From an uncultured Lentisphaeraceae bacterium (GTDB lineage Bacteria; Verrucomicrobiota; Kiritimatiellia; RFP12; DVOR01), in the NCBI GenBank assembly GCA_949288955.1, contig CASEMS010000016.1, positions 4,379-68,378 of the forward strand: a DNA stretch of 64,000 bases, written 5' to 3'. The notes under the pieces are model-generated. The model was given only the letters and a program-made list of their open reading frames with translations, was not told where the DNA came from and made no database searches. Both the position numbers and the translations under genes were made by a program. This document shows, piece after piece, positions 612 through 45,764 of this stretch. The number at the start of each line of letters is the position of its first letter. Positions within the stretch are counted from its first letter, which is position 1.

Positions 612-1195
612 GGCACGCGAAGGGGGGGATCACAAAGGCCACGAAGGGGGACACGGAGGCGCACGAAGCACGACGGGGGATACAATCACAAAGAACACAA
701 CGGGCACAAAGGGGGCGCGGGCGTGGCCCGCGCAGGACTGGATGGACGGCGAGGGGAACCGCAGATTGCGCGGATTGGGGCGGATTGGGGGTCGGCTACC
801 GCCGACAGGACTGCCAGGAGGGAGACCACGGAGAGCACGAAGGGGGACACGGAGGCGCACGAAGCACGACGGGGACAATCACAACGGGCACAAAGGGCAC
901 AACGGGGCGCGGGCGTGGCCCGCGCAGGACTGCCAGAACGCCCGACAGGCACAGCAGGGCGGGGGGACTCACTTGGGCAGCGTGGGAGGCGAGGGCGGTA
1001 GGGAGCGGTCAGCGGGCGAAGCCCGCAGAGCGACCGGCGGAGCCCGCAAGCCTCCCGCGCCACCTTGCGTCTTTGCGGTCTCCCCAAGGAGGCTCGGCGG
1101 CTGAGTCTCCTTGGGTCAGCGGCTGATCGGCTTTGGATCGGCGGCTGACTCACCTTGGGTCAGCGGCTGAGCCGAAGTGGGTCAGCCGCCGAGGC
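612..1195. repeat. composite intergenic repeat locus R1 (inverted copy of R2)
   Basis: Exact 39-nt duplicate cacgaagggggacacggaggcgcacgaagcacgacgggg at 640..678 and 836..874 (196-bp offset). GC hairpin gcgcgggcgtggcccgcgc at 715..733 and 907..925. CACAAMGGG short repeats. A 22-bp-phased array of five units at about 1088..1195. Region 750..1195 is the reverse complement of 11029..11545, with about 95 percent identity over the stretches I aligned by eye. Confidence 0.85.
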
Positions 1196-11028: not shown

Positions 11029-11545
11029 GCTCAGCCGCCGATCCACCCCGACTCAGCCGCCGATCCACCCTGGCTCAGCCGCCGATCCACTTCGGGTCAG
11101 CCGCCGATCCTCCTTGGGGCAACCGCAAAGACGCAAGGTTGCGCGGGAGGCTTGCGGGCATGATGGGGAGGCTTGGAAGTTTGGAGGCTTGGAGGCTTGG
11201 GGGGCTTTGACCGCAAAGACGCAAGGGGGCGCGGGAGGCTTGCGGGCTCCGCCGGTCGCTCTGCGGGCTTTGCCCGCTGACCGCTCCCTACCGCCCTCGC
11301 CTCCCGCGCTGCCCAAATGAGTCCCCCGCCATGTTTCGTGGTCTCCCCGCGTCGTCCTGCGCGGGCCACGCCCGCGCCCCCCTTTGTGCCCTTTGTGCCC
11401 GTTGTGATTTCTTCCCCGTTGTGCTTCGTGCTTCTCCGTGCCCCCCTTCGTGCCCTTGGTGATCTCCCCCCTGGCAGTCCTGTCGGCGGTAGCCGACCCC
11501 CAATCCGCCCCAATCCGCGCAATCTGCGGTTCCCCTTTGTCGGCC
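11029..11545. repeat. composite intergenic repeat locus R2 (inverted copy of R1)
   Basis: 22-bp array with units starting at 11029, 11051, 11073 and 11095 (ctcagccgccgatccac...). A 38-bp module accgcaaagacgcaagg..gcgcgggaggcttgcgggc is duplicated at 11121..11158 and 11209..11246, flanking a ggaggcttgg microsatellite. Hairpin gcgcgggccacgcccgcgc at 11358..11376. The remainder is the reverse complement of R1. Confidence 0.85.
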
Positions 11546-15039: not shown

Positions 15040-15235
15040 GGGGAGGGCCTGAAGGACCTGAAGGACGGGAAGGACCTGAAGGACTGCCTCGCTGGCGTGG
15101 CCGCCACCCCACCGAGACTCGGCGGCCGATCCATCGAGACTCCGCGGCTACCTCTCTGAGAGTCAGCCGCCGATCCACCTCGGGTCGGCCGCCAAGTCTC
15201 CTCGGGTCGGCGGCTTCGCGGGCGGAGGGCGGGTT
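15040..15235. repeat. composite intergenic repeat locus R3
   Basis: Four 9-bp units (ctgaaggac) at 15049..15084. Shared block gcctcgctggcgtggccgccacccca, also present in R4. 22-bp-phased units gagactcggcggccgatccatc / gagactccgcggctacctctct / gagagtcagccgccgatccacc ... at about 15112..15215. Confidence 0.85.
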
Positions 15236-21705: not shown

Positions 21706-21950
21706 ATGACCTGAAGGTCGGGAAGAACCTGAAGGACAGCCTCGCTGGCGTGGCCGCCACCCCAACGAGCCTCGGCCGCCAAGTCTCCCTGCCTCAGCCG
21801 CCGATCCACCGAGACTCAGCGGCTACCTCTCCGAGACTCAGCCGCCGATCCTCCGAGAGTCAGCCGCTAAGTCTCCTCGCGTCGGCGGCTGATGCTCCGA
21901 GCGTGTGCGACCAAGCCTCCAAGCATCCAAACCTCCAAACTTCCAATTGC
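21670..21950. repeat. composite intergenic repeat locus R4
   Basis: cctgaaggaa / cctgaatgac / ctgaaggtc / cctgaaggac units. The shared block gcctcgctggcgtggccgccacccca. 22-bp-phased units at about 21766..21898 (gagactcagcggctacctctcc, gagactcagccgccgatcctcc, gagagtcagccgctaagtctcc ...). Then ccaagcctccaagcatccaaacctccaaacttcc, the reverse complement of the microsatellite in R2. Confidence 0.85.
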
Positions 21951-27720: not shown

Positions 27721-27779
27721 TGTGGAAGGTTGCCTCACAGACAGTTTAAATAATCAATGTGTTTGGCGTGAACGTGGCT

Positions 27780-29474: not shown

Positions 29475-29507
29475 GGCTTCGCACGCCGTCGCCTGCGGGA
29501 GAGGGGG

Positions 29508-30131: not shown

Positions 30132-30718
30132 GGCGTGGCGTCCCGGCGGAGGAGGCCGTGGGCGGCGAGCCAGTCGCGCACGAGTCCGCGGGGGAGGCCC
30201 ATGGCGTTGGTGTGGCTGCCGACGCGGCCGGCGATGAGCATCTCGCCGTGCGCGTTCACGTCGTAGGCGCCGGCACGGTCGAGGGGGCGGACGCGCCGGA
30301 GGTAGGCCTCGGCCACGTCGGGGCCGTAGTCCCTGAACAGCAGCCCGGTGGCCTCGATGCGCAGGGAGGGCTCCTCGGCGCCGGGCAGGAGCAGGGCCAC
30401 GCCGGTGAAGACGGTCTGCGCGCGCCCGGCGTAGGAGAGGAGCCAGGCGCGCGCCTCCTCCTCGTCGCGCGGCTTGCCCAGCACGCGCCCTTGGAAGCAG
30501 ACCACGGTGTCGGCGGCGATGATGGCGGCGTGGGGGCGGAGGGCCTGCGCGGCGAGGGCTTTGTGGCGGGCGTTCACGCCCACCGTCGCCACGGGCTCCT
30601 CCGGGCGGGCGATCTCGATGCTCCGCGGCACGACGACCTCGAAGGCCACCCCCAACGCTTGGAGGATGGCCCGCCGCCTCGGGCTGCCCGAGGCCAAGAC
30701 GATCGGCGTGCCCCGCAT
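30128..30718 (-). CDS. maf: Maf-like nucleoside triphosphate pyrophosphatase
   Basis: MRGTPIVLASGSPRRRAILQALGVAFEVV...AADTVV...GKP...AGAY match Maf motifs. Confidence 0.88.
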   Translation of the reverse strand: MRGTPIVLASGSPRRRAILQALGVAFEVVVPRSIEIARPEEPVATVGVNARHKALAAQALRPHAAIIAADTVVCFQGRVLGKPRDEEEARAWLLSYAGRAQTVFTGVALLLPGAEEPSLRIEATGLLFRDYGPDVAEAYLRRVRPLDRAGAYDVNAHGEMLIAGRVGSHTNAMGLPRGLVRDWLAAHGLLRRDATP

Positions 30719-30770
30719 GGCGCGTATTGTAGCAAAGCCCCACCGATGAAAGGCGGGGTTGTCGATAACT

Positions 30771-30836
30771 TTGGATCGGCGGCTGACCCGAGGTGGATCG
30801 GCGGCTGACCCGAGGTGGATCGGCCGCCGATCCTCG
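30771..30836. repeat. repeat locus R5: three 22-bp units
   Basis: tggatcggcggctgacccgagg occurs twice identically (30771 and 30793). It is followed by tggatcggccgccgatcctcgg (30815). Confidence 0.9.
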
Positions 30837-30864
30837 GAAGGGCGGGGCGGCGCGCCATCGGGGC

Positions 30865-30895
30865 TTGACCTGGAGCGCACACCATGTGCTATCGT
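30865..30895 (+). promoter_or_regulatory. predicted promoter for the DUF362 gene
   Basis: TTGACC (30865..30870) and TGcTATCGT (30887..30895). The spacer is 16 or 19 nt depending on the -10 register. Confidence 0.35.
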
Positions 30896-30922
30896 GGACT
30901 TCGCAATGAAAGGAGTGTGTTT

Positions 30923-33501: not shown

Positions 33502-33512
33502 GGCATGGGCGC

Positions 33513-34394
33513 TCAGAGCAGGGCGCGGGCGGCGTAGGGGTCGTCCTGCGCGTGGCGGCGGAGGGCGTCGAGGATGGTGGCCTCGGGGACGCCGAAGTAA
33601 CGGGCGAATTGCGCGGGGCGGAGGGGGTGGCGGCGGGCGAGGGCGAGGAGGGCGGCCTCGGAGTAGGGTTCGGGCGCGGGGGCGTGGGCGGCGGTCTGGG
33701 CGTGGGCGACGGTGGCGAAGAGTCGGCGGAGGTGGGCCATCTCGGCGGGCGGCACGTCGCGCACGGCGGAATCGGCGGGCGGGCGCTCGGCGGAGTTGAC
33801 GGTGACGGTGGCGGGGCGGAGGCTCTCGGCCAGGGCGAGGACGCGGTTGAGCGCCTCGGGCGCGTCGTTCACCCCGGGGAGCGCGAAGAACTCGACGTCG
33901 AGCGCGCCGGCGTAGTCTTTGCGGAAGGCGCGCCAGCCTTCGAGGACGCGGGCGAAGGTGAGATCGGGGTGGGGGCGGACGGTGGCGCGGAAGCTGGCCT
34001 CGTCCCAGAAGTGGAGGGAGATCTTGACGCGGTCGGCGAGGGCGGCGTCGGCGCGGACGGCGGGGTCCCAGAGGAGCGCACCGTTGCTCATGAGCAGGGA
34101 GGGGCGGCCGAGGGCGCGGATGTGGCGGAGCACATCGCCGAAATGCGCGTGGAGCGTGGGCTCGCCGGAGCCGCAGAGGGTGAGGACGTCGACGGGTTCG
34201 CCCTTCGCCAGCCAGGCGTCGAGCTCGCGCAGGACGTCGGGGAGGGGGGCGTAGTCGCGCCGTTCGAGGGTGGTGCGGGGGGTGGGGCCGAGCTGGCAGA
34301 AGACGCAGTCGTAGCAGCAGGTCTTCATGGGCACGAGGTCGATGCCCAGGCTGCGCCCATAGCGGCGCGAGGGGACGGGGCCGAAGAGGTACAT
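33513..34394 (-). CDS. radical SAM protein
   Basis: N-terminus MYLFGPVPSRRYGRSLGIDLVPMKTCCYDCVFCQ carries the CxxxCxxC cluster motif. Confidence 0.8.
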   Translation of the reverse strand: MYLFGPVPSRRYGRSLGIDLVPMKTCCYDCVFCQLGPTPRTTLERRDYAPLPDVLRELDAWLAKGEPVDVLTLCGSGEPTLHAHFGDVLRHIRALGRPSLLMSNGALLWDPAVRADAALADRVKISLHFWDEASFRATVRPHPDLTFARVLEGWRAFRKDYAGALDVEFFALPGVNDAPEALNRVLALAESLRPATVTVNSAERPPADSAVRDVPPAEMAHLRRLFATVAHAQTAAHAPAPEPYSEAALLALARRHPLRPAQFARYFGVPEATILDALRRHAQDDPYAARALL

Positions 34395-34428
34395 TTGGGG
34401 GCCTTCGGGGGGTTGGGGGGCGGAGGGG

Positions 34429-36672
34429 TCAGTCCGTGGCGGTCTTCTTGAAGTGCTCGCGGGCGCGGAGCTGGCGGCGGGTCTTGGCGTCCTCGGGGCA
34501 GGTGGGGAAGTCGAAGGCCTCGGCGTCGCCGTAGCGGGAGTCGAGCGGCTTGGAGAAGAGGGCGCCCTCGTCGTCGGCGGAGGGCCAGGGGACCCAATCC
34601 TGCGTGTAGGCGTAGGCGGCCTTGGAGAGGGGGAGGCCCCAGAGCTCGAAGTAAGGGGTGAGGTCGCGCTGGACGGCGCGGCTCCAGGCGCAGCAGAGCT
34701 TGTCGCCGGTGGCGTCGGCGGGGAGCTTGGAGAGGTCGCCTTGGACGACGCGCATGACGCTCTCGACGCCGAAGTGGTGGGCGAGGGTCATGTAGAAGAC
34801 GAGGCGCTCGCCGACGGAGCTTTTGGCCCAGAGGTCGGGGGTGCGCTTGGCGGCCTTGGCGGCGATGGAGTCCCAGTTCGCCCGCTGGATACGGTTGAAG
34901 GGCGTGCCGTTGAGGAGGTTCATCGTGCAGGTGCCGTAGAAGTTGTTGATGACCTCGGTGTTGCCGGGGAGGGAGAAGACGCCGCCGGGGCCCTGGCCCA
35001 TGTTGTGGCCGATCTCGTGGAGCGCGCCCCAGGAGCCGGCCCGCTGGAGACCGGCGAGGTTCATCATGCCGCCGCCCCAGTCGATGCACATGATGGGATA
35101 GCCGGAGTGCCCGGCGCCGGAGTTGATCTGCGTGTCGTCCACGATGCGTATGGGCGTCCACTTCGGCTCGTTCTCGCGCGAGGGTTTCTTGATGGCCTTG
35201 GGTTTGTTGGGGTTCTGGGGCACGGGCTCCTCGGGCGCGGGGCCGTAGCGGTTGGCCTCGGGGCTGTCGGCGGCGGCCTTGGCGGCGGCGCGGGCGTTCT
35301 CCTCGGCGTCGGGCGGCGCGTCGGGGTTGAGCTGGACGAGCTTCTTGTCCTTGATGCCCCATTCGCGGCGGTCGCCGCGGAAGTTGTCGGCCTCGGAGTC
35401 GGTGGGCAGGCCGTGGCCGGAGACGCGGAGCATGATGGCGGCGGCCTTGCCCCACCACTGCGCGAGCGCCTGCATGTCCTGGACGTGGCGGACGTCCTCG
35501 GAGGGGACGGTGAGGATGACGGTCTTGGTCTGCACCTCGGCCCAGGGCGCGGGGTACTTGGAGATGGTGGAGACCCACTCTTCGTTGGTGTCCAGCCCCA
35601 GGCGGAACCAGGGCATCTGGACGCAGCCGGAGACCTCCACGTCCATCGGGCGGCGCCCGCCCTCCCACTTGAACCAGAGCACGCCGCCGAGGACGTGGCC
35701 GATCTCCTGGCGCTTCTTGGCGATGCGGAAGTCGCGCACCATGTCGGGCCAACGCCAGAGGGGGCGGTCGTCGGTGATCTGCTGCCAGCCCATCTTCACC
35801 TTCATCAGGTTGATGGGCTGGGGGTCATAGGGGTTGTTCAGCGGGTTGCCGTCCTCGTCGAGGGGGCAGATCTTCGGGGGCAGGTTGTCGCTGTGGCACC
35901 CGATGCGGGCGGTGAGCGTGCCGGAGAGTGCGCCGCAATCGAGCGTAACCACCTCGCCCGGCGGCACATAGAGCCCCGTGCTCACCCACCCGCCCTCGCC
36001 GGGGTAGAGGCGCACCTTCTTGCGGACGCGCTCGGCGTCGGCGGGCACCTTGCCGGGCCAGAGGTCGGCGGACTTGGCGGGGTAGAGCTCGTCCATCCCC
36101 AGGCGCTGCGCCTTCCAGCTCTGATAACGCACCAGCAGCAACTCCAACGGCCACTTGATGCTCACGCCGCGCGAGGGGCCGCAGACCACCTCTCCGCCAC
36201 GACGGTAGAGCAGCTCCTCCAAGGCGGCCTTCAGCTGGCGTGCGTCCTTGGCCAACGAGCCGCCCTCCTCGGTGTCGCTGTTGAAGATGCGCATGGTCTC
36301 CACGTAGGCCACCATGCCCTGTCCCGTCTGGCCCGTCGCCTTGCCCCCCACGCCGTCCCCGGCCAGGCCGCCACCGTCGTCCGCGTACCTCTCCTCCGCC
36401 GCCTTCTGGTCGATCTCCAGGCGCTGGATGGCGTCGAACCACGGCCCCACCTCGCGGGCCACCTTCCTCATGCGCTCGCGCTCCTTCAGCTCGGCGCGGT
36501 ACTCGGCGGCCGAGGGCAGGCCGTTGGTGGCCACGATCTTGCGGTCGTAGTCCAGCTTCTCGATGACGTGCCCCTGGCGGGTCACCTCCGCGGGCTTGTC
36601 GTTCCGGAAGGTCAGTTGCGCGTGGGCCGCGAGGGCCAACGCGAGCATCGCGACTGTCAGCAAGCGTCTCAT
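34429..36672 (-). CDS. secreted M60-like zinc metallopeptidase
   Basis: Signal MRRLLTVAMLALALAAHAQ. The HExxH motif appears in GSWGALHEIGHNMGQ (M60/enhancin-like context). 747 aa. Confidence 0.75.
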   Translation of the reverse strand: MRRLLTVAMLALALAAHAQLTFRNDKPAEVTRQGHVIEKLDYDRKIVATNGLPSAAEYRAELKERERMRKVAREVGPWFDAIQRLEIDQKAAEERYADDGGGLAGDGVGGKATGQTGQGMVAYVETMRIFNSDTEEGGSLAKDARQLKAALEELLYRRGGEVVCGPSRGVSIKWPLELLLVRYQSWKAQRLGMDELYPAKSADLWPGKVPADAERVRKKVRLYPGEGGWVSTGLYVPPGEVVTLDCGALSGTLTARIGCHSDNLPPKICPLDEDGNPLNNPYDPQPINLMKVKMGWQQITDDRPLWRWPDMVRDFRIAKKRQEIGHVLGGVLWFKWEGGRRPMDVEVSGCVQMPWFRLGLDTNEEWVSTISKYPAPWAEVQTKTVILTVPSEDVRHVQDMQALAQWWGKAAAIMLRVSGHGLPTDSEADNFRGDRREWGIKDKKLVQLNPDAPPDAEENARAAAKAAADSPEANRYGPAPEEPVPQNPNKPKAIKKPSRENEPKWTPIRIVDDTQINSGAGHSGYPIMCIDWGGGMMNLAGLQRAGSWGALHEIGHNMGQGPGGVFSLPGNTEVINNFYGTCTMNLLNGTPFNRIQRANWDSIAAKAAKRTPDLWAKSSVGERLVFYMTLAHHFGVESVMRVVQGDLSKLPADATGDKLCCAWSRAVQRDLTPYFELWGLPLSKAAYAYTQDWVPWPSADDEGALFSKPLDSRYGDAEAFDFPTCPEDAKTRRQLRAREHFKKTATD

Positions 36673-37409
36673 GGCTCATCCTCCGCTTCGTCGTCATCCC
36701 ATACCACCGTCACTGTGCCCTGCGCGGGGCCCTTGCCGCGGCCCTTCCCCACCGCCACGCGCAACGCCCGCAGCGTCGCCGTCTCCTTGCCGGAGGGGGC
36801 GAAGCGCAGCGCCGCGGCCACGCGCCCATCCTCCCCCAGGCGCACCCAGAAGACCGCCTTGCCGCGACCCTCCGGCGCCGACGCCTCCATCCGGAAGCCC
36901 GCCGCCGCCAAGGCCCCGTCGGGCCGCACGGACACCTTCGGCGCCGTGCCCGCCGTCAGCCCCTCCGCCACGGGCGGGAGCGCCTGGCGCCAGACGCCCG
37001 CCGCGCCGCGCGCCCGCACCTCGGGCAACGGCCCCGGCCGCGCGAAGGCCACCGGCCTTGGCTCCGGCAGCGGCAGATCCAGCGAGATGCCGATGTCCGC
37101 GTCGCCCAAGGCCCCGACCAGGCGGCGGGCGTTGCCCATCCGCAGCAGCTCCCCCACCTCCCCCGCCGTCGCCTGCGCCAAACCCAGCCCGGCGGGGGGG
37201 AGGGCGTAGCGCGCGGGGTCGCCGCCGCCGGGGCGGAAGGCCAGGAAGCCGACCGCCGTGGAGGCCATCCCCGCGAGCGCCAACCCGCAGACCAGGGCCG
37301 GCGCCCACCAGAAGAGGAAGGCGCGCCAGACGGGCGAGCGCCGCCGCCGCCGCGCCTGGTAATGGCGGATCTGCTTGCGCCGCCGCTCAATGTTCTGCCG
37401 CCGCGCCAT
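36669..37409 (-). CDS. hypothetical membrane-anchored protein, possibly TonB-like
   Basis: Basic N-terminus, a single TM (VWRAFLFWWAPALVCGLALAGMA), and the C-terminal segment GKAVFWVRLGEDGRVAAALRF. Overlaps the exbD stop and the M60 start. Confidence 0.5.
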   Translation of the reverse strand: MARRQNIERRRKQIRHYQARRRRRSPVWRAFLFWWAPALVCGLALAGMASTAVGFLAFRPGGGDPARYALPPAGLGLAQATAGEVGELLRMGNARRLVGALGDADIGISLDLPLPEPRPVAFARPGPLPEVRARGAAGVWRQALPPVAEGLTAGTAPKVSVRPDGALAAAGFRMEASAPEGRGKAVFWVRLGEDGRVAAALRFAPSGKETATLRALRVAVGKGRGKGPAQGTVTVVWDDDEAEDEP

Positions 37410-37902
37410 CGCCCCCCGCCTTCGGCACCGCCACCAGGTTCACCCGCGCCACCCCGCACGCCCGCAGACGCTCCACCCAGCCGAGCGTCTCCCCATAGGT
37501 CACCGCCGCGTCCACGAGCAGGTTCAGCGCCTCGCCGGGGCGCACCCGGGCCAAGGCCTCCAGCTCCGCGACGTTGTCCGAGGAGTAGCGGCCCTCGTCC
37601 AGCAGCAGCACCGTGACGTCCCCCCGCTCGGGGGAGGAGACGCGGCGCACCACCGCCGTGGGCAGGCGCGCGGGCAGCCCCTCCTCCAACGGCGCCTGCG
37701 GCAGCTCCAGCACGCGCCCCGGCTGGATCACCGTCTGTTGCCCCAGGCACCAGAGCAGCACCGCCAGGGCCATCAGGTTGACCCACGGCACGATGAGCAG
37801 GAAGGAGCGCCACACGCGGCTGCGCGGCCACCGCCGCCCCGCGAAGGTGTGCCGCTGCCAGACGAAGGGCCCCTGCGCCGCCCGCTCACGCGCCCGCGCC
37901 AT
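37387..37902 (-). CDS. exbD: ExbD/TolR-family biopolymer transport protein
   Basis: Single TM (SFLLIVPWVNLMALAVLLW) followed by a periplasmic ExbD-like domain (...LLVDAAVTYGETLGWVERLRACGVARVNL). Follows the exbB-like gene. Confidence 0.65.
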   Translation of the reverse strand: MARARERAAQGPFVWQRHTFAGRRWPRSRVWRSFLLIVPWVNLMALAVLLWCLGQQTVIQPGRVLELPQAPLEEGLPARLPTAVVRRVSSPERGDVTVLLLDEGRYSSDNVAELEALARVRPGEALNLLVDAAVTYGETLGWVERLRACGVARVNLVAVPKAGGDGAAAEH

Positions 37903-38524
37903 CGCGCGTCCCTCCCCCTGCCGCGTTGCGCGCCAGGTAATCCAGGGTCAGCGCCACCGTCTGATCCATGTCCAGGCAGAGCGCGTCGGTCTTCTGCACC
38001 AGCACGTGGTGGGCCGCGTAGCAGAAGGCCGCGCCCACCAGGCCGGCGATGGTGGTGGCCAGCGCGCCCGCCGCCGCGCCCACCGCCGCGCCCGTCGCCA
38101 CCAACGGCGCCTCCGCGTCGATGGCCGAGAGGGCCGCGTAGCCCCCCACGAAGGTGCCGATCAGCCCGATCAGCGGCAGCAGTTGGGCGAAGAGCGAGAG
38201 CGCCATCGTCCGCCGCTCCAGGCGCGAGAGCTCCGCGTGGGCGGTGGCCGAGAGGATGTCGCGCAGGTGCGCCTCGTCGCTGCCGCGGTGCGAGATTGCG
38301 TCCGCCACCAAGGCCGCCAAGGGGCCGGGCGTCTCGTCGCAGATCGCCAACGCCTCGTCCGTCTGCCCCTTGTCGAGCACGTTGAAGACGCCCTGCAGGA
38401 AATCCTGCGGGTCGATGGCGATTTTGCGCAGGCGCAGCAGGCGGTCCACGAAGATCGCCACCGCCACAACCGTCAGCGCCACCGTCAGCCAAAACAGCAT
38501 CCCGCCGTCCCAAAAGAGACTCAT
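37886..38524 (-). CDS. exbB: MotA/TolQ/ExbB-family proton channel protein
   Basis: MSLFWDGGMLFWLTVALTVVAVAIFVDRLLRLR...LFAQLLPLIGLIGTFVG...ATTIAGLVGA is a typical ExbB/TolQ pattern. Confidence 0.8.
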   Translation of the reverse strand: MSLFWDGGMLFWLTVALTVVAVAIFVDRLLRLRKIAIDPQDFLQGVFNVLDKGQTDEALAICDETPGPLAALVADAISHRGSDEAHLRDILSATAHAELSRLERRTMALSLFAQLLPLIGLIGTFVGGYAALSAIDAEAPLVATGAAVGAAAGALATTIAGLVGAAFCYAAHHVLVQKTDALCLDMDQTVALTLDYLARNAAGGGTRDGAGA

Positions 38525-38856
38525 CCCTCGTTCCTCCGACCTGCGCAGACCGCCTCGATCGCGGCGCTCCGCCAACGCTCCGGGTAATCCCGGCACTGCC
38601 GCGGCCGCGCCGCGTAGACCCTGCAACGGTTGTCCGCGCCCAGGAAGGGGCAGGGCCCCTCCGGGTCGCCCCGCAGCGCCAGCCCCGTCCGCGACGGCGT
38701 CAGCTCCGCGTAGGCGTTCACGAACGCCCCCACCTCCATCCCCAGAAAGCCCGCCAGCGCCTCCGCGTCCCCCTCCGCCAGGCGCACCAGCCCCGGCACG
38801 CGGCAACACGCCCCGCACCCACGGCAGACAAACTTCCGTGTCCCGTCGCTTTCCAT
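38521..38856 (-). CDS. YkgJ-family (UPF0153) cysteine-cluster protein
   Basis: FVCRGCGACCR...CPFLGADNRCRVYAARPRQCRDYP. ATGA overlap with the exbB start. Confidence 0.7.
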   Translation of the reverse strand: MESDGTRKFVCRGCGACCRVPGLVRLAEGDAEALAGFLGMEVGAFVNAYAELTPSRTGLALRGDPEGPCPFLGADNRCRVYAARPRQCRDYPERWRSAAIEAVCAGRRNEG

Positions 38857-38934
38857 ATCCTTTATTATAGCACTTTGGGGCGGGGTTGGTGGGGCGCCCC
38901 CCCGAAGGCCCGGAACGCCCCGAAGGGCGGTCGC

Positions 38935-39088
38935 GGAGACTTGGCCGCCAATCCACGGAGACTTAGCCCCCGACCCAGGGAGACTCAGCCGCCAATCCAA
39001 GGAGACTTAGCGGCTGACCCGGGGAGACTCGGCGGCTGACCCGGGGAGACTCAGCGGCTGACCCACGGAGACTTGGCGGCCGATCCTG
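38935..39088. repeat. repeat locus R6: seven 22-bp units in perfect phase
   Basis: GGAGAC starts at 38935, 38957, 38979, 39001, 39023, 39045 and 39067. Example units: ggagactcagccgccaatccaa, ggagacttagcggctgacccgg, ggagactcggcggctgacccgg, ggagactcagcggctgacccac. Confidence 0.92.
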
Positions 39089-39120
39089 GGTGGGGAGGGG
39101 CGGGGGTTCGCGGACGCACC

Positions 39121-39150
39121 TTGCGGGGTGGGGGGCGGTTTTGGTATCAT
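39121..39150 (+). promoter_or_regulatory. sigma70-type promoter with extended -10
   Basis: TTGCGG (39121..39126), 18-nt spacer ending in TGg, TATCAT (39145..39150). Confidence 0.45.
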
Positions 39151-39156
39151 GGGGGC

Positions 39157-39293
39157 GCATTGAGGGAGTAGCCGGCGCGGAAACGCGCGGTAGGCCAACA
39201 GTCTCGGCGGCAACGCCTGGTCTATCTTGAATGGCGAGACTCATGTGCGGCGCGTCGCGCCGCGCAGGGTCGCCCTTTGACGCAAGCAAGGAG
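39157..39293 (+). promoter_or_regulatory. candidate yybP-ykoY (Mn2+) riboswitch aptamer
   Basis: 5' GAGGGAGUAGCC and 3' CUUUGACGCAAGCAAGGAGAC resemble the conserved GGGGAGUAG and UUGAC...AGCAAGAC strands of the family. Three internal hairpins are present: gcgcg-gaaa-cgcgc, gtctcg...cgagac and gcggcgcg-tc-gcgccgc. It lies upstream of a P-type cation ATPase, a typical genomic context. Confidence 0.5.
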
Positions 39294-39330
39294 ACGCCCG
39301 CGCGGGAGACCGCCGGGCGTTTTTGCGTTT
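39294..39330 (+). terminator. leader terminator (riboswitch expression platform)
   Basis: acgcccg ... cgggcgt stem followed by TTTTTGCGTTT, 20 nt before the ATPase ATG. The 5' arm overlaps the 3' conserved aptamer strand. Confidence 0.55.
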
Positions 39331-39349
39331 GTCAGAGGACGGAGCGAGT

Positions 39350-41938
39350 ATGGACAAGGCTTTTTGCACACCCGCCGACGAGGTGTTGCGCGCGTTGGGC
39401 GGCGACCGCCACAGGGGGTTGGACGAGGGGGCCGTGCGGGCGAGCCGCGAGGCCCACGGCGCCAACGAGCTGGCCAGGCCGGAGCCGATCGGCTGGTGCC
39501 GGCGGATCGTCGAGGCGTTCAAGGAGCCGATGATTCTGCTGTTGGTGCTGGCGCTGCTCATCATGGTGGGGGTGAACGTGGCGCATCTGCTGACGGATGG
39601 GCACACGGAGTTCGCCGAGTGCGTGGGCGTGGCGCTGGCGATCCTGCTCTCGGTGGGGATCTCGGTGGGGATGGAGGGGCGCAGCGCCAAGGCCTTCGAG
39701 GCGCTGCGCGGGATGGGGGCGGATGTCCGTCCCCGGGTGCTGCGCGGCGGCAAGAGCTTCCGCATCCCGCAGTCGGAGCTGGTGGTGGGCGACGTGATGT
39801 TCGTGGGGACGGGGGACAAGCTGACGGCGGATGGCCGCCTGCTGGAATCCAACGGCTTGGTGGCCGACGAGAGCGCGCTGACGGGGGAGTCGGCGCCGGT
39901 GGAGAAGCACGCGGCGGCCGTGGTGGCCGAGTCCGCCCCCGTGGCGGAGCGCCCGACGATGCTCTACGCGGGGAGCTATGTAACGGCGGGCACGGGCCTG
40001 ATGGTGGTGACGGCGGTGGGGATGCGCACGGAGTTCGGGCGCATCGCGGCGGCGTTGGCGGATCAGAGCGCGGGCAAGACGCCGCTTCAGGAGCGCCTGG
40101 CGCATCTGGGCAAGTGGGTGACGCTGGCGGGCATCGCGGCGGCGGTGTTGGTCTTCGCCATCCAGATCGCCCAGAACGTGCTGCGGCATGGGGAGCTGTC
40201 GTGGACGGGCGTGGGCGAGGCCTTCATCTCGGCCATCGTGCTGATCGTGGCGTGCGTGCCCGAGGGGCTGCCGACCATCGTGGCGATGAGCCTGGCCATC
40301 AACGTGCTGAAGATGGCGAAGCAGAACGCGCTGGTCAAGAAGCTCATCGCCTGCGAGACGATCGGGTGCGTCACCTTCATCTGCTCCGACAAGACAGGGA
40401 CGCTGACCGAGAACCGGATGACGCTCATCGCCCTCTGCGGCCCCGACGGCCGGCGCGTCGCGCCCGAGGGGCTGCTGCTGGAGAATCTGTGCGTGAACGC
40501 CACCGCGGACCTCGCGCCCGACGGCAAGGGCTTCGTGGGCAACCCCACGGAAGGCGCCCTCATCGTGGCCGCGGCCCAGGCGGGGCATGACCCCGCGGCC
40601 CTGCGCGAGGCGGCGGAGATCGTCGCGGTCGAGCCCTTCTCCTCCGACACCAAGCGGATGGTCACGCGCCTGGGCGGCGCGCACCCCATCGCCCTCATGA
40701 AAGGCAGCCCCGAGGCCGTCCTCGCCGCCTGTGCCCTCGCGCCCGAGGCCCGCGCCGCCGCCGAGGCCGCCATGGCGAAGTGGCAGGACCAGGCCTGCCG
40801 CGTCCTCGCCTTCGCCCACGCCGAGGGCGACGGCGCGTATGCCTACGACGGCTTCGCGGCCATCGCCGACCCCGTGCGCGCGGACGTGCCGCCGGCCATC
40901 GAGGCCTGCCGCACCGCCGGCATCAACGTGATGATGCTGACGGGCGACAACCTCATCACCGCCACCGCCATCGCCCGCTCGCTCGGGATGCTGGAGGGCG
41001 GCCACCGCGCCGTCACCGCCGCCGAGCTGGAGCGCTTGGACGACGCCGCCTTCGCCGAGGCGCTCCGCACCGTCCGCGTCATCGCCCGCTCCACCCCCTC
41101 CGTCAAGCTCCGCGTCGTGCGCACCCTCAAGGCCCAGGGCGAGTCCGTCGCCGTCACGGGCGACGGCATCAACGACGCGCCCGCCATCAAGGAGGCCGAC
41201 GTGGGCGTGGCCATGGGCATCACCGGCACCGAGGTGACCAAGGAGGCGTGCGACATCCTGCTGCTCGACGACGCCTTCGCCACCATCGTGCGCGCCATCC
41301 GCTGGGGCCGCGGCATCACTGACAACTTCAAGCGCTTCATCCTCTTCCAGCTCACCGTCAACGTCTCGGCCGTGCTCGTGGTGCTCGTGGCCGTCATCCT
41401 CGACGAGCCGCCCCCCTTCTCCGCCCTGGAGCTGCTCTGGATCAACATCATCATGGACGGCCCGCCCGCCCTCTGCCTGGGCCTGGAGCGCATGAGCGAC
41501 GACCTCCTGCGCCGCAAGCCCCTCCGCCGCGACGCCCCGCTCGTCAGCCGCGGCATGGCCCTGCGCATGGCCGTCGTCGGCGTCTTCATCGCCGCGCTCT
41601 GCCTGCTCCAGCTCAAGGGCGTGGCCGACTTCCTCGGCGTGGCCGGGGAGGAGACCCTCGCCACCGCCGTCTTCACCCTCTTCGTCTTCTGCCAGCTGGC
41701 CAACGCGCTGGCCGCGCGCCGGCCCGAGGGCGGCAACCCCCTCGGCGGGCTCTTGGGCAACCCGGCGCTCCTCTGCGCCATCCTCATCGCCGCCGCGCTG
41801 CAATGGGTCATCGTAACCTACGGCGGCGGCGCCTTCGGCACCGTGCCGCTCGACCTCGCCACCTGGGGCCGGATCCTCCTGGCCGCCGCCTGCGTGCCCC
41901 TCCTGGCGGCCCTGCTGCCGCGCTCCCGGGGCGCCTGA
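39350..41938 (+). CDS. P-type cation-transporting ATPase (type II, Ca2+/Mn2+-like)
   Basis: ICSDKTGTLTENRM (DKTGT phosphorylation site), VAVTGDGINDAPAIKEADVGVAMG, TGES-type LTGESAPV. 10-TM architecture. 862 aa. Confidence 0.92.
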   Translation: MDKAFCTPADEVLRALGGDRHRGLDEGAVRASREAHGANELARPEPIGWCRRIVEAFKEPMILLLVLALLIMVGVNVAHLLTDGHTEFAECVGVALAILLSVGISVGMEGRSAKAFEALRGMGADVRPRVLRGGKSFRIPQSELVVGDVMFVGTGDKLTADGRLLESNGLVADESALTGESAPVEKHAAAVVAESAPVAERPTMLYAGSYVTAGTGLMVVTAVGMRTEFGRIAAALADQSAGKTPLQERLAHLGKWVTLAGIAAAVLVFAIQIAQNVLRHGELSWTGVGEAFISAIVLIVACVPEGLPTIVAMSLAINVLKMAKQNALVKKLIACETIGCVTFICSDKTGTLTENRMTLIALCGPDGRRVAPEGLLLENLCVNATADLAPDGKGFVGNPTEGALIVAAAQAGHDPAALREAAEIVAVEPFSSDTKRMVTRLGGAHPIALMKGSPEAVLAACALAPEARAAAEAAMAKWQDQACRVLAFAHAEGDGAYAYDGFAAIADPVRADVPPAIEACRTAGINVMMLTGDNLITATAIARSLGMLEGGHRAVTAAELERLDDAAFAEALRTVRVIARSTPSVKLRVVRTLKAQGESVAVTGDGINDAPAIKEADVGVAMGITGTEVTKEACDILLLDDAFATIVRAIRWGRGITDNFKRFILFQLTVNVSAVLVVLVAVILDEPPPFSALELLWINIIMDGPPALCLGLERMSDDLLRRKPLRRDAPLVSRGMALRMAVVGVFIAALCLLQLKGVADFLGVAGEETLATAVFTLFVFCQLANALAARRPEGGNPLGGLLGNPALLCAILIAAALQWVIVTYGGGAFGTVPLDLATWGRILLAAACVPLLAALLPRSRGA

Positions 41939-42014
41939 GGCGCCCCCGGGGGATGGCCGCCCCGCCTGGCCTCCGCACGCATTCCGGAAGGTTCGTAAAA
42001 GGCGGCGAAAAGGC

Positions 42015-42044
42015 TTGACAGCGGGGCGGCGGGCGGTGTATATT
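42015..42044 (+). promoter_or_regulatory. sigma70-type promoter of the atp operon
   Basis: TTGACA (42015..42020), 18-nt spacer ending in TG, TATATT (42039..42044). ATG of atpB at 42073. Confidence 0.6.
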
Positions 42045-42072
42045 ACGAATCATTCTTTCGGAGAGGACGCGC

Positions 42073-42864
42073 ATGCAAGAGCAGTTGGCGAAGTTCCAAG
42101 AGTATGTGAACCACCACGTGTTGCACCACGAGGGGACGCCCGACGCGAGCACCTTCTCCGAGTGGATCTCCGGCATCGGCTTCCCCAAGCTGGCCATCTT
42201 CCACAGCGACGTGGTGATGCTGCTGGTGTTGGTGCTGCTGCTGTGCGCGATCGCCTTCCTGGCGCGCCGGAAGATCGGGCGCGTGCCCAGCGGCCTGGGG
42301 CTGCTGATGGAGAAGTACGTCATCTTCATCCGCGACGAGATGGTGGAGCCGAACTTCGGCGGCAAGGGCTCGGGCCGCGGCTTCATCCCCTTCTTCTGCA
42401 CGCTTTTCCTCTTCATCCTGATGGCGAACCTGCTGGGGCTCGTCCCGCTCTTCTCGTGCGTCACGGGCAACATCAACGTGACGGGCGCGCTCTCGCTCAT
42501 CTTCTTCATCGTGGCGCTGTGCGCGACGGTGTGGCTGGGGGGCGCGCGGGGGACGCTCGCGGCCTTCCTGCCGGGCGGCCTGCCCGGGCCGATGAAGCCG
42601 CTGATGTTCGTCATGGAGGTCATCTCCTTCTTCACGCGCACGGCGGCGCTGATGATCCGTCTCTTCGCCAACATGATGGGCGGGCACATCATGCTCTACA
42701 TCATGGCCGCGATGACGGCCATCGTGGGGTGGTACGCGGCCCCGACCGTCCTCGTCGCCTCGCTGCTTTACTTCTTCGAGCTTTTCGTCGCTTGCCTCCA
42801 GGCCTACGTCTTCACGATGCTGGCGGCGGTCTTCATCGGGATGATGGTTCATCCCCAACACTGA
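42073..42864 (+). CDS. atpB: F0F1 ATP synthase subunit a
   Basis: MKPLMFVMEVISFFTRTAALMIRLFANMMGGHIM contains the conserved Arg helix. Confidence 0.93.
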   Translation: MQEQLAKFQEYVNHHVLHHEGTPDASTFSEWISGIGFPKLAIFHSDVVMLLVLVLLLCAIAFLARRKIGRVPSGLGLLMEKYVIFIRDEMVEPNFGGKGSGRGFIPFFCTLFLFILMANLLGLVPLFSCVTGNINVTGALSLIFFIVALCATVWLGGARGTLAAFLPGGLPGPMKPLMFVMEVISFFTRTAALMIRLFANMMGGHIMLYIMAAMTAIVGWYAAPTVLVASLLYFFELFVACLQAYVFTMLAAVFIGMMVHPQH

Positions 42865-42891
42865 CACAGGACAGAAGAGAGGAACACGGAC

Positions 42892-43089
42892 ATGAGCATG
42901 AGTGCGATCGGTGCGGGTCTTGCGGCCGTCGGCGCGGGCATTGGCATTGGGTTGGCCGCCTTCGGCGCCCTGAACGGCATGGCGCGCCAGCCTGAGATGG
43001 CCGGCAAGCTGCAGACGGCGATGCTGATCGCCGCGGCGCTGGTCGAGGGCGTGGCCCTCTTCGCCGTGGTGCTTGCCTTCATCAAGTGA
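42892..43089 (+). CDS. atpE: F0F1 ATP synthase subunit c
   Basis: MSMSAIGAGLAAVGAGIGIGLAAFGALNGMARQPEMAGKLQTAMLIAAALVEGVALFAVVLAFIK is a hairpin proteolipid with the conserved Glu. Confidence 0.93.
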   Translation: MSMSAIGAGLAAVGAGIGIGLAAFGALNGMARQPEMAGKLQTAMLIAAALVEGVALFAVVLAFIK

Positions 43090-43103
43090 CGCAGGGGCCG
43101 CGC

Positions 43104-43706
43104 ATGGACACGCAGGCGCCACACGCACAGACCGCCCCGGCGCCCGGCGGCACCGGGCCGCAGGCCTTCGAGGGGCAGCCCCCGCCCGCGCCGCACGAGG
43201 CGCTCCCGGCCTCCTCCTCCGTGATGGACTTCAACGGGCTGGTGCTCACGCTCACGTGGGTCGCCTTCCTCATCGCGTTCGTGGTGCTGGGCAAGTTCCT
43301 CTGGAAGCCCATCCTCCACTGGCTTGAGAGCCGCGAGGCGGAGATCCGCACGTCGCTCGACGACGCCGCCGCCGCCCGCAAGGCCGCCGAGGAGGCCGAC
43401 GCCAAGGCCGCACAGACCATCGCCGACGCCGAGCGCGACGCCCGCGCCAAGGCCGACGCCATGGCCGCCGCCGCACGCAGGCACGTCGCCGAGATGGAGG
43501 GCGAGGCCCGCGAGGCCATCGCCGCCAAGCGCCGCCAGGCCGAGGCCGACCTGGCCGACGAGCGCGCCGCCGCGATGCGCAAGCTCTCCGAGCAGGCCGG
43601 CGGCGAGATCGCCAAGGCGCTCGACCGCCTTCTGCCCGGCCTGCTGACCGACGCGCAGCGCCAGGCCTATCAGGATCAGATCGCCGCCGACGTGCGGTTC
43701 CGGTGA
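43104..43706 (+). CDS. atpF: F0F1 ATP synthase subunit b (start uncertain)
   Basis: TM LVLTLTWVAFLIAFVVLGKFLWKPILHWLESREAEI followed by a long Ala/Glu/Arg-rich helix. Alternative starts at 43086 (GTG) and 43224 (ATG, MDFNG). Confidence 0.8.
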   Translation: MDTQAPHAQTAPAPGGTGPQAFEGQPPPAPHEALPASSSVMDFNGLVLTLTWVAFLIAFVVLGKFLWKPILHWLESREAEIRTSLDDAAAARKAAEEADAKAAQTIADAERDARAKADAMAAAARRHVAEMEGEAREAIAAKRRQAEADLADERAAAMRKLSEQAGGEIAKALDRLLPGLLTDAQRQAYQDQIAADVRFR

Positions 43707-43713
43707 GGTCGCC

Positions 43714-44256
43714 ATGCTGAACGATGAGGAAGCCGCCCGCCCCTACGCCCGAGCCCTGGCCCAGGCCGCACAGGACTTGGGGCTGATGGCGCGCGTGCGC
43801 GCCGACATGGAGGCGCTGGGGGCGCAGTGGGAGGGCTCCGAGGAACTCCGCCGCTGGGCCTGCGGCTTCCACAGCATGCCGCGCGCCCAGCACCGCGCCA
43901 CGGTGGGCCTGCTTTGGGGCGACACGATGGCGCCGCCGACGCTGCGGTTGCTCGAGGCGCTCTCCGTCCACGGCCTGCTGGCGGCCATCCCCGCGGTGGT
44001 CAAGGCCTTCCGCCGCTTCGCCGACAAGGCGGAGGGGCGCGTGGACGTGGACATCGTCTTCGCCGCGCCGCCCAAGCCCGAGACGGAGGCGGCGCTCCGC
44101 GCCCGCGCCGTCGAGGCCTATGGCTCGAACACGCGCGTCTTCGTCGCCACGGACGCGCGCCTGGGCGCCGGGCTGGTGGTGCGCGCCGGCCACACGCAGT
44201 TTGACGGATCGTTGAAAGGGCGCCTGCGCCGCCTGCGCCACGCCTTCGCACAATAA
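43714..44256 (+). CDS. atpH: F0F1 ATP synthase subunit delta (OSCP)
   Basis: 180 aa. Positioned between b and alpha. N-terminus [12 protein letters not shown] and C-terminus [19 protein letters not shown] are typical. Confidence 0.85.
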
Positions 44257-44264
44257 GGATCGCA

Positions 44265-45764
<1,500 letters not shown>

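Follow-up and report, generated by a model that had tools for sequence, protein, structure and literature searches.

What kind of element is formed by the seven tandem units at positions 38935-39088 of the window, that is, of the whole 64-kb stretch of DNA analysed here? Each of these units starts with GGAGAC, the first at 38935 and the others at steps of exactly 22 bp. The original prediction placed the same unit at five further loci, with about 30 units in 64 kb, and a core-pattern search and TRF both confirmed this. With T[CT][AG]GC[CG][GC]C[CT][GA]A as the core pattern, we counted 30 units in six arrays (A1 to A6), the cores being placed at exact 22-bp (or 44-bp) steps; the 22-bp register is exact in 30/30 units, and the units are arranged head-to-tail in every array. 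TRF independently reported a period of 22 at all six loci. Three in-phase cores were matched six times in the window versus zero times in 100 dinucleotide shuffles, and the only solitary canonical core of the window, at 36503, is located inside a gene.

Structure of the repeat unit

The conserved part of the unit, originally taken to be an 11-bp core, is in fact a 17-bp dyad, GRV-TCRGC-S-GCYGA-BYC, combined with a free linker of 5 bp. At position +/-8, 82 of the 86 half-sites have C/G. The TCC or CCC that had been seen to trail the core is real, but it represents the outer part of the dyad and is mirrored as GGR or GAC on the other side. Among 43 distinct units, positions -5, -2, -1 and +2 are invariant, positions +1 (41/43), +5 (39/43), -8 (42/43) and +8 (40/43) are nearly so, and positions 0, +/-3, +/-6 and +/-7 are degenerate on both sides of the dyad. 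The conservation is mirror-symmetric, with a correlation of r = 0.976 between the information contents of the left and right halves. Linkers recur between units; the core is common to seven or more loci, and the linkers differ.

This symmetry is not accompanied by covariation between the halves. The observed versus expected numbers of half-to-half complementary pairs at variable positions are 18 vs 20.7, 32 vs 31.7, 3 vs 11.8, and 19 vs 19.3. The commonest unit, TCAGCCGCCGA, is itself mismatched, and a hairpin formed by the dyad would have a central loop of 1 nt. Mirror-symmetric information with no excess of intrastrand complementarity fits a dimer that reads duplex DNA rather than a hairpin or an RNA structure. 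Since 22 bp corresponds to 2.1 helical turns, the sites are not exactly on one face of the helix; the earlier suggestion that all cores face the same side is nearly correct, with a drift of about 34 degrees from site to site.

Genomic context of the arrays

All six arrays in the window are intergenic according to GC3-based gene calls, Pfam matches and gene calls on orthologous contigs, as had been claimed together with their non-coding nature; the intergenic share of the window, estimated from gene calls, is about 8%. The arrays adjoin housekeeping genes, namely cysS, tRNA-Cys, scpA, maf and the P-type ATPase gene. Promoters were found by a search for TGnTATnnT; a standard promoter and terminator scan was too strict for this genome and found none.

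Array A1 (1088-1195, minus strand) has five units with cores at 1094, 1116, 1138, 1160 and 1182 (core span 1094-1192). It is located downstream of the rpsT terminator and about 516 bp upstream of the cysS -10 element, and is identical in L031-L034. Array A2 (11029-11116, plus strand; core span 11031-11107) consists of four units, each TCAGCCGCCGA-TCC. The centre of its proximal unit is 63 bp from the -10 element of the divergent tRNA-Cys promoter, and in strain L031 the array likewise has four units, with different linkers. Array A3 (15112-15222, plus strand) includes three canonical units (core span 15119-15195) and two degenerate ones, five in all, and is found between scpA and a promoter at 15290-15298. 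Array A4 (21766-21898, plus strand; core span 21772-21892), with six units and a partial 44-bp super-period, is upstream of a leaderless-type promoter, TGGTATAAT, at 22023-22031. Array A5 (30771-30836, minus strand; core span 30776-30830) has three units, two of them identical, and lies between the divergent promoters of maf (minus strand) and a DUF362 gene (plus strand). The seven units of array A6 (38935-39088, plus strand; core span 38941-39083) separate the divergent promoters of a CxxCxxCC-protein operon (minus strand) and the P-type ATPase gene (plus strand). The extended -10 element of the ATPase promoter, TGGTATCAT, occupies 39142-39150 on the plus strand, its hexamer being 67 bp downstream of the centre of the last A6 unit. 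The ATPase promoter and leader are conserved across strains, and the A6 array is variable.

A further four-unit array of the same species, A7, was found in L010 and L039. All seven arrays of the species (about 76 kb examined) are upstream of an extended -10 promoter TGnTATnnT, and the promoter side is in each case (7/7) the direction given by a weak unit polarity at +/-6, placement and orientation statistics that are weak because they represent only four independent composite types. The distance between the nearest unit centre and the -10 hexamer is 50-81 bp in six of ten cases; A1 and A2 are about 470-520 bp from the promoter to which they point. No known transcript enters A2, A5 or A6, which are all between divergent promoters.

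Composite mosaic elements

The 22-bp arrays are modules of larger intergenic mosaic repeats that also contain arrays of 8-, 9- and 10-mers, with the modules shuffled. Three composite types, X, Y and Z, were found in two copies each. Composite X1 (620-1195, minus strand) includes A1 as its distal module, a hairpin-like core of about 130 nt, CACAAAGGG-type 9-mer arrays (a duplicated module) and two copies of GCGGATTGGG, and it ends at the cysS promoter. Composite X2 (11028-11540, plus strand), with A2 as the distal module, is an inverted copy of X1 (89% identity over 333 bp) that ends at the promoter of a GH3 gene. It holds an 8-mer array of GGAGGCTT (11167-11200), which strain L031 lacks.

In composite Y1, A3 is preceded by a AAGGACCTG-type 9-mer array (15044-15084, plus strand), which has a homologous copy at 21696-21734. 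Altogether, 15048-15215 matches 21701-21890 of composite Y2, which contains A4, with 79% identity over 190 bp. The 8-mer array CCAAACCT/AAGCCTCC that comes after A4 (21911-21946, minus strand) is the reverse complement of the GGAGGCTT module of X2, and the same 8-mer module is present behind the array of metagenome contig L019. Composite Z is defined by the left flank of A5, a GTTATCGACAACCCCGCC module common to A7 of L010 and L039. One 100-bp module is present or absent depending on the strain. Repeats of this kind break short-read assemblies of the lineage and attract spurious ORF calls, such as the 142-aa ORF over X2 in L031.

Comparison between strains

The strains compared are 96.5-100% identical. 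The unit counts of orthologous arrays are the same at 5/5 loci: A6 has seven units in the window, L010 and L039, A5 has three in both sequences, A7 and A2 have four in both, and A1 has five in five sequences. The fixed 22-bp helical register is kept in all arrays and all strains compared. No indels occur within orthologous arrays; the flank directly upstream of A6 has a 14-bp indel.

The sequence of the arrays changes rapidly, with divergence between strains of 7-23% versus 0.7-3.5% genome-wide. This turnover, 3-10 times the genome average, occurs in conversion-like tracts, and substitutions are limited to the symmetric degenerate positions. None of the 32 comparisons differed between strains at -8, -2, -1, +2, +5 or +8, and up to 12-15 of 32 differed at 0, +3 and +10. 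Bacterial repeats do not usually combine a constant unit number and spacing with a sequence that turns over rapidly and symmetrically; the combination makes the arrays a clean natural experiment on selection for binding geometry versus concerted evolution.

Phylogenetic distribution

In about 83 kb of DNA from five related lineages, there are no arrays. None was found in the lineages at 86-95% protein identity (L029, L030, L035-L038, L050 and L051) or in the 52% GC relatives L011-L016. A search for the triple-core pattern in 185,579 species genomes (GTDB representatives) found no family member; its nine singleton matches, in Actinomycetota and Halorubrum, are near-identical 22-bp tandem duplications and were attributed to chance. 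The same pattern gave zero matches in viral contigs, and blastn of the arrays versus plasmid and phage records found no similar DNA.

Of 12 matches in a metagenome scan, L019 is the only clear family member, recognised by the AAGCCTCC module that it shares with the others. The L019 array is between convergent genes, upstream of their shared terminator, and has no obvious promoter. In L026, six phased TCAGCSGCTGAC units are found in 460 bp of host DNA beside an insertion sequence (IS), and the neighbouring ORF has a weak match to the DDE_Tnp_1 transposase family. We rejected the terminal repeats of this IS as a source of the L026 array: the IS ends 335 bp away, and ten related IS copies have no array. 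The remaining metagenome matches are chance pairs.

The family is confined to one species-level lineage of high-GC (70% GC) Kiritimatiellae, a narrow distribution that would be more usual for selfish repeats than for a regulatory system. The arrays match no described repeat family, as the original prediction had supposed. In Rfam, they had no match at the gathering or at a permissive threshold (E <= 0.5), and only tRNA-Cys reached a gathering score. In the literature, searches on palindromic intergenic repeats of 22 bp, on repeats of Kiritimatiellae and on the literal cores brought up nothing but general REP/SMAG papers and unrelated primers.

Arrays as putative protein-binding sites

We tentatively favour, at somewhat less than even confidence, an explanation in which the arrays provide binding sites for a dimeric DNA-binding protein peculiar to the species, and in-register gene conversion maintains them. 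This explanation draws on the observed anatomy and phasing of the arrays, their dyad symmetry without pairing covariation, the conservation of register and count along with hypervariability elsewhere, the placement upstream of promoters and the narrow distribution; from these features we infer protein binding, cooperativity and any effect on transcription. A dimeric sequence-specific protein would read the 17-bp dyad at the DNA level, and the 22-bp spacing of centres would place successive dimers on nearly the same face of the helix, so that three to seven of them could bind side by side and cooperatively. Adjacent dimers may then form a short nucleoprotein filament. Such filaments would be assembled directly upstream of sigma-70-type extended -10 promoters, often between divergent ones, and could serve there as an architectural, insulating or regulatory platform.

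The family would be young and species-specific, dispersed as a module of the mosaic intergenic repeats. Its uniformity could be kept by in-register gene conversion between units and between arrays, while the contact positions, the spacing and the unit number would be held by selection or by the recognition requirement of the binding protein. Conservation of the core could also be explained by concerted evolution alone, if every conversion donor carries the core. The original view of the arrays as protein sites, rather than REP-like hairpins or terminators, stands insofar as a DNA-level site fits better; no candidate protein could be tied to the arrays among the window ORFs scanned, and a REP/BIME-like origin is still a rival. 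The only DNA-binding-like ORFs among those scanned are an HU-like protein at 1742-2302, with marginal Pfam matches, and a small ORF at 13815-14183 with weak sub-threshold matches to helix-turn-helix and zinc-ribbon domains.

The rival that survives best, which we consider possible though less likely, is that the arrays are selfish or neutral mosaic DNA of the REP/BIME/NIME type, whose palindromic units spread through intergenic regions together with other modules and are homogenised by gene conversion. The spread would be due to an enzyme recognising the 17-bp dyad (a RAYT-like transposase, a recombinase or a nuclease) or to ectopic recombination; sites upstream of promoters would be those where insertions are tolerated, and binding of a host protein would be incidental. 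The restriction to a single species-level clade, the paired composites with their shuffled 8-, 9- and 10-mer modules, including the flank shared by A5 and A7, the module that is present or absent between strains and the fast conversion-like turnover are all consistent with this scenario, as is the L019 array with no downstream promoter. Recognition by an enzyme would likewise yield dyad-symmetric conservation.

In Neisseria NIME, 20-bp dRS3 palindromes alternate with RS units of 50-150 bp. Like NIME, the mosaics described here are intergenic recombination hot spots with a short palindrome between other modules; unlike NIME, the arrays have 5-bp linkers and rigid helical phasing, and the sequences are unrelated. 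REP/BIME and SMAG repeats, as portrayed in PMC2613905, PMC3733652 and PMC3116915, are also short GC-rich palindromic units that are abundant, intergenic and species-specific, form mosaics with other short motifs, are sometimes arranged in tandem, and have family members replaced through recombination.

Several features of the arrays speak against this origin. The units lack the GTAG/CGTC end tags that mark the two large REP super-families (PMC3733652); GTAG, CTAC, CGTC and GACG occur zero or one time each per array (30 units in total). REP units are imperfect palindromes of 20-40 bp that can fold into a stem-loop; the 17-bp dyad of the arrays has a single central base in place of a proper loop, and its halves do not covary. 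SMAG loci of Stenotrophomonas maltophilia have units of 50-103 bp that differ in length by locus (PMC2613905), whereas the arrays everywhere have one rigid 22-bp period and are strictly head-to-tail, with no inverted pairs. The unit number, conserved at all five orthologous loci, is opposite to the copy-number polymorphism of REP/SMAG clusters. A Pfam scan of 30 window ORFs detected no transposase and no RAYT was seen in about 76 kb of the species examined, and the IS beside the L026 array does not include that array.

Other interpretations

As a special case of protein binding, the arrays could be loading or centromere-like sites of a ParB/KorB-family or other partition protein, their palindrome clusters nucleating a clamp or partition complex that spreads to silence or organise the neighbouring DNA. 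We consider this very unlikely. Tandem palindromic units in strict phase make up F sopC and the parC sites of R1 and pSK41; F sopC has twelve 43-bp repeats, each with a palindrome, and the gamma-ori of R6K has seven 22-bp iterons. Iteron and centromere arrays of three to twelve units are bound cooperatively by dimeric proteins and often adjoin or overlap promoters. The arrays resemble them in that their tandem units keep an exact helical register and consist of a conserved core and a less conserved spacer. However, plasmid iterons and centromeres occupy one or two loci per replicon beside their own rep or par gene, whereas the arrays are found at no fewer than seven loci in about 76 kb of chromosome, within dispersed mosaics; no rep or par gene was found near the six window loci.

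The operator OB of the IncP-1 plasmid RK2 is a 13-bp palindrome, TTTAGCSGCTAAA, that is read by a ParB-family protein (PMC11790492). The TCRGC-S-GCYGA consensus resembles its core, TTTAGCGGCTAAA (PMC11790492). Both are odd-length palindromes centred on S, located near promoters, with the inner AGC-S-GCT and position +/-5 in common, and the variant units TTAGCGGCTGA, TCAGCCGCTAA and TCAGCGGCTAA exactly match one OB half-site. The reader of OB is a dimeric helix-turn-helix protein, and KorB is described as acting on promoters from operators nearby. On the other hand, position +/-4 (G/C in the arrays, A/T in OB), position +/-6 and the flanks differ, KorB operators are single, scattered sites rather than phased 22-bp arrays, and no ParB/KorB-like gene was detected among the window ORFs scanned. 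An 11-bp resemblance is weak evidence in a 70% GC genome, and we treat it as a lead only.

Action at the RNA level also appears quite improbable. Under this reading, the arrays would be transcribed in 3' or 5' untranslated regions or small RNAs, and base-pairing of near-complementary neighbouring cores would give 11-bp stems and 11-nt loops that act as stabilisers, processing sites or terminator-like elements. Most arrays indeed fold far better than shuffled sequences (z = -3 to -7), A3 and A4 follow genes on the same strand, from which no intrinsic terminator was seen to separate them on reading the sequence, and in L019 the array is flanked by a gene end and a terminator. But such a folding excess is expected of any array of palindromes and is absent for the plus strand of A2 (z = -0.75). 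Across strains, covariation contributes only -0.32 kcal/mol to the alifold energy, in line with the lack of covariation between the halves; conservation is symmetric on both strands, no T-tracts were found downstream of the arrays, and neither the Rfam result nor the position of A2, A5 and A6 between divergent promoters favours this reading. We rejected hairpin or RNA structure, the folding excess being not universal and covariation being absent.

A most improbable and disfavoured reading is that slippage during replication, or unequal crossing-over, gave rise to ordinary minisatellites in which no sequence is specifically recognised, and that the loci resemble each other by chance or common descent. 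Many short intergenic tandem arrays do exist in the lineage and its relatives (7- and 9-mers in L038; 8-, 9- and 10-mers in the window), and single 22-bp tandem duplications with the core arise by chance in unrelated high-GC genomes. But the core is the same at seven or more loci, where the linkers differ, and its conservation profile is mirror-symmetric; a copy number that is invariant between strains while the sequence changes is the opposite of slippage behaviour.

Three further candidates were rejected: a CRISPR array, in which repeats of about 23-50 bp alternate with unique spacers of similar length, next to cas genes or a leader, in view of a conserved part of 17 bp, a variable part of only 5 bp and recurring linkers; MITE or IS terminal repeats, which the original prediction had named as a refuting outcome, in view of the missing plasmid or phage similarity and of the only nearby IS, that of L026, whose relatives have no arrays; and a C-rich Rho-utilisation site, since the arrays have a C/G bias that does not fit the direction from which transcription comes in.

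Implications

If the arrays are selfish, they would extend the REP/BIME concept to a tag-less, head-to-tail, rigidly phased type and would call for a new mechanism that mobilises or homogenises them. If they are protein platforms, as we tentatively prefer, a bacterium could rapidly install one and the same architectural multi-site element upstream of many unrelated promoters. A bolder and unlikely version of this explanation is that they form an undescribed class of chromosomal cis-elements, phased platforms of three to seven sites that would nucleate a short filament of a lineage-specific dimer immediately upstream of promoters or between divergent ones, in an insulator- or enhancer-like way or by KorB-like clamp loading, with site number and spacing selected and the sequence reshuffled by gene conversion. 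Protein platforms of either kind would point to a new DNA-binding protein in an uncultured lineage of the PVC group.

Six phased arrays of a 22-bp unit

The original prediction of strictly 22-bp-phased arrays at six loci, with about 30 units in all, was confirmed by a regular-expression scan, by Tandem Repeats Finder and by shuffling. Scanning the window with T[CT][AG]GC[CG][GC]C[CT][GA]A yielded 28 cores, 27 of which form six groups with steps of exactly 22 or 44 bp, the only other match being a lone one inside a gene, at 36503. Once degenerate units are filled in, there are 30 units: five in A1 (1088..1195), four in A2 (11029..11116), five in A3 (15112..15222), six in A4 (21766..21898), three in A5 (30771..30836) and seven in A6 (38935..39088), where every successive unit starts with GGAGAC. 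Tandem Repeats Finder called period-22 arrays at all six loci; a 44-bp super-period scores stronger at 21766-21901 and 38935-39086. The window contains six in-phase core triplets versus none in 100 dinucleotide-preserving shuffles. With one mismatch allowed, 32 single-core matches were found versus 14.9 ± 3.8 expected, the canonical cores all lying within arrays, except for the one at 36503. As predicted, all six arrays are located between genes, and the impression that they belong to no described repeat family agrees with Rfam, where no family matches them. This repeat family is real and non-random and has so far not been described.

A further stretch scored as period 22 by the same program, 1757-1817, has two copies of GCTTAGAGCGGGTCT 48 bp apart and lies immediately 5' of the HU-like gene's promoter (-10 element at 1853-1861).

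Symmetry of the unit

We folded each of 43 distinct units from the window and the strains about its centre and tabulated both halves. The predicted quasi-palindromic core of 11 bp is real, but the conserved dyad extends to 17 bp, GRV-TCRGC-S-GCYGA-BYC, with a linker of about 5 bp. Counted from the dyad centre (position 0), which is S with G and C equally frequent, positions -5, -2, -1 and +2 are invariant (43/43), and +1 (41/43), +5 (39/43), -8 (42/43) and +8 (40/43) are nearly so. The half-site bases are G at ±1, C at ±2, A at ±5 and C at ±8; ±3 is Y, ±4 is mostly G, ±6 is variable, ±7 is Y-rich, and constraint is weak at ±9 to 11. The two halves correlate in information content (r = 0.976).

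Complementarity between the halves at variable positions is no more common than under independence (18 observed versus 20.7 expected at ±3, 32 versus 31.7 at ±4, 19 versus 19.3 at ±7, and 3 versus 11.8 at ±6). Because of the deficit at ±6, the unit is weakly polar, with GAC on the left and TCC on the right. By this polarity each orientable array points to the downstream promoter, a trend that is statistically not strong, since the placement and orientation statistics come from only four independent composite types of element. Symmetric conservation without pairing covariation is what would be expected from a dimeric protein that reads duplex DNA, and not from a hairpin or an RNA stem. In most arrays folding is stronger than in shuffled sequences (z = -3 to -7), as it must be in any array of palindromes. 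The plus strand of A2 has no folding excess (z = -0.75), which, together with the lack of covariation between the halves, agrees with the earlier view that the arrays do not suggest REP-like hairpins or terminators. The covariation term in the consensus fold of three A6 orthologues is only -0.32 kcal/mol, and the GTAG and CGTC tags are absent from the arrays.

Variation between strains

Contigs of the same ENA study represent close strains: L010 (99.3% identical to the window over 37004-45747 and 97.2% on to 48365), L031 (98.8% over 1-11128), L032-L034 (100% over part of 1-3387) and L039 (96.5% over 29475-43115 and 97-99% on to 48365). The number and register of units are kept in every orthologous array: 7/7/7 in A6, 3/3 in A5, 4/4 in A2, five in each of five sequences in A1, and 4/4 in A7, a seventh array found in L010 and L039. 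No indel was observed within any array compared; one of 14 bp is found immediately upstream of A6.

Within their intergenic regions, the arrays vary most. Over about 530 bp around A6, the window and L010 show only 11 differences, which are clustered in units 4-6; between the window and L039, 36 of the 154 positions of A6 differ and the ATPase promoter with its leader of about 170 nt is nearly identical. In A2, the window differs from L031 at 18 of 88 positions, and one of the two lacks a 100-bp module with a GGAGGCTT array. Summed over pairs, differences amount to 0 of 32 at -8, -2, -1, +2, +5 and +8, and to as many as 9-15 of 32 at 0, +3, +6, +9, +10 and -4. These clustered, patterned changes, such as the replacement of GGCTGACCC by CGCCGATCC in consecutive units, look like in-register conversion tracts, and the conservation of the core could partly be a by-product of concerted evolution. 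The array loci appear to predate the divergence of the strains. Slippage-type VNTRs behave in the opposite way, since here the copy number is stable while the sequence turns over; in SMAG clusters, unlike here, the copy number varies by strain.

Genes and promoters around the arrays

The window has a GC content of about 70%, lower in its tail, and its gene content is ordinary chromosomal: cysS, rpsT, an HU-like protein, an RND efflux system, a glycosyltransferase, tRNA-Cys, a GH3 hydrolase, scpA, guaA, an XhoI-type restriction-modification pair, a DUF362 protein, an M60 peptidase, a P-type ATPase, the atp operon, and lpxA-like, lptF/G-like and ompA-like genes. The nearest named homologues of its AtpA are Kiritimatiellae MAG proteins. 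Promoters resemble extended -10 elements (TGnTATnnT) with weak -35 elements, e.g. at 22023-22042 and 11571-11589, and on the minus strand at 38852-38872 and 30716-30734. An ATG often follows about 7 nt after the extended -10, so several transcripts are probably leaderless, which suggests that leaderless mRNAs are frequent in this lineage.

An extended -10 promoter lies beyond every array (A1-A7), and A2, A5 and A6 are flanked by divergent promoters. Between the centre of the nearest unit and the start of the -10 hexamer, the distance is 50 bp from A5 to maf, 63 bp from A2 to tRNA-Cys, 65 bp from A5 to the DUF362 gene, 67 bp from A6 to the ATPase gene, 77 bp from A6 to a CxxCxxCC operon, 81 bp for A3, 139 bp for A4, 150 bp for A7 (in L010), 472 bp from A2 to the GH3 gene and 516 bp from A1 to cysS.

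The 5' leader of the P-type (Ca2+-type) ATPase gene (39151-39323), which is almost 100% conserved in L010 and L039 and adjoins the hypervariable A6, has a folding z of -2.5 and a terminator-like hairpin with a T-run at its end (about 39285-39322). It has no Rfam match and may be a riboswitch or attenuator of an undescribed kind. The XhoI-family restriction endonuclease (PF04555, E = 4.8e-81) adjoins an N6/N4 DNA methylase at 27759-29314, inside an island of lower GC (about 58%) between guaA and maf; this system was probably horizontally acquired. From about 56000 to 64000, GC falls to 52-60% and minus-strand genes form a run, which looks like another horizontally acquired island; an ORF in this tail (55916-56779) has no Pfam match.

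Larger mosaic elements

Self-comparison of the window revealed that the arrays are modules of larger mosaics, of three composite types. In type X, 622-1195 is an inverted copy of 11028-11536 (89% over 333 bp); in type Y, 15048-15215 is homologous to 21701-21890 (79% over 190 bp); in type Z, the sequence to the left of A5 (GGCGGGGTTGTCGATAACTTTGGA) recurs as its reverse complement to the right of A7 in L010 and L039. The composites join the 22-bp array, in varying order, to a 130-nt hairpin-like core, 9-mer arrays of the CACAAAGGG and AAGGACCTG types, an 8-mer array of GGAGGCTT and a 10-mer pair, GCGGATTGGG.

These other short arrays share the intergenic regions of the 22-bp arrays and are shuffled modules, each found at two or more loci: the CACAAAGGG type at 687-713, 880-906 and 11380-11406, the GCGGATTGGG pair at 770-790 and 11498-11518, GGAGGCTT at 11167-11200 and 21911-21946, and the AAGGACCTG type at 15044-15084 and 21696-21734. 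The 9-mer arrays, too, differ between strains through conversion-like swaps. The core segment of type X (about 130 nt; 975-1085 and 11205-11335), with close to 97% identity between copies as counted from the alignment, forms, in folding, a single long and imperfect hairpin (z about -2.5 for either strand) and might be a small RNA or a MITE-like core.

Distribution

The triple-core pattern has no real match in 185,579 species-representative genomes, nine matches, in unrelated high-GC genomes, having been rejected as single tandem duplications of 22 bp with near-identical copies. It is unmatched in the viral collection, and blastn found no similar DNA in plasmid and phage records. The metagenome scan returned one clear relative, on L019, with three units followed by a AAGCCTCC module, between convergent genes and upstream of a bidirectional terminator. 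It also returned L026, where 460 bp of host DNA contain six phased TCAGCSGCTGAC units with free linkers. The IS next to the latter array, with a weak DDE_Tnp_1 match, ends 335 bp from it, and ten related IS copies carry no array, so the repeat is not an IS end. That element (L026, 461-2082) and its relatives on L040-L049 are about 1.8-2 kb long and encode a protein of 436-461 aa with a weak DDE_Tnp_1 match only; several copies have a small HTH_28 ORF ahead of the gene for it. The protein has thousands of homologues, and of the 120 matches listed nearly all come from contigs about 2 kb long, which suggests an IS family that is abundant and poorly annotated.

Five contigs of relatives (L029, L030, L035, L038 and L050; 86-95% protein identity, GC 64-69%, about 83 kb in total) contain no 22-bp array, so the family appears to be confined to one species-level clade. 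The contig of a related Kiritimatiellae lineage, L038 (87% ATPase identity), has its own 7-mer and 9-mer tandem arrays (2928-2958, 6006-6045, 6096-6129 and 7558-7593), all between genes by its gene coordinates, and the clade may generally carry short arrays in its intergenic DNA.

Possible function of the arrays

We tentatively regard the arrays as putative sites for a dimeric sequence-specific DNA-binding protein, dimers of which would sit side by side along the array. Dyad-symmetric contacts, rigid 22-bp spacing, conserved unit number and placement upstream of promoters point to this arrangement as the simplest explanation. The suggestion that all cores face the same side of the helix holds in part: 22 bp is close to two turns, but it corresponds to 2.1 turns, a drift of about 34 degrees per unit, and thus not exactly to one face. 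No binding protein for the arrays was found in the approximately 76 kb of the species' genome examined.

A less probable explanation is a selfish repeat family of the REP/BIME or NIME kind, in which a mobilising enzyme would recognise the dyad. It is favoured by the limitation to one species, the mosaic and duplicated composite elements, the turnover driven by conversion, and the non-promoter context of the L019 array. The two explanations are not mutually exclusive, since REP/BIMEs are bound by host proteins. That the binding protein would be KorB/ParB-like seems improbable; the core resembles the KorB operator TTTAGCSGCTAAA, which is a lead and not a test. A function at the RNA level is very unlikely given the absence of pairing covariation and of Rfam matches, and plain slippage minisatellites can hardly account for a stable copy number combined with sequence turnover.

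Among the known dispersed intergenic palindromic or iteron-like repeats, the family is a new structural variant, and its unusual property is the combination of invariant geometry with fast, symmetric sequence turnover.
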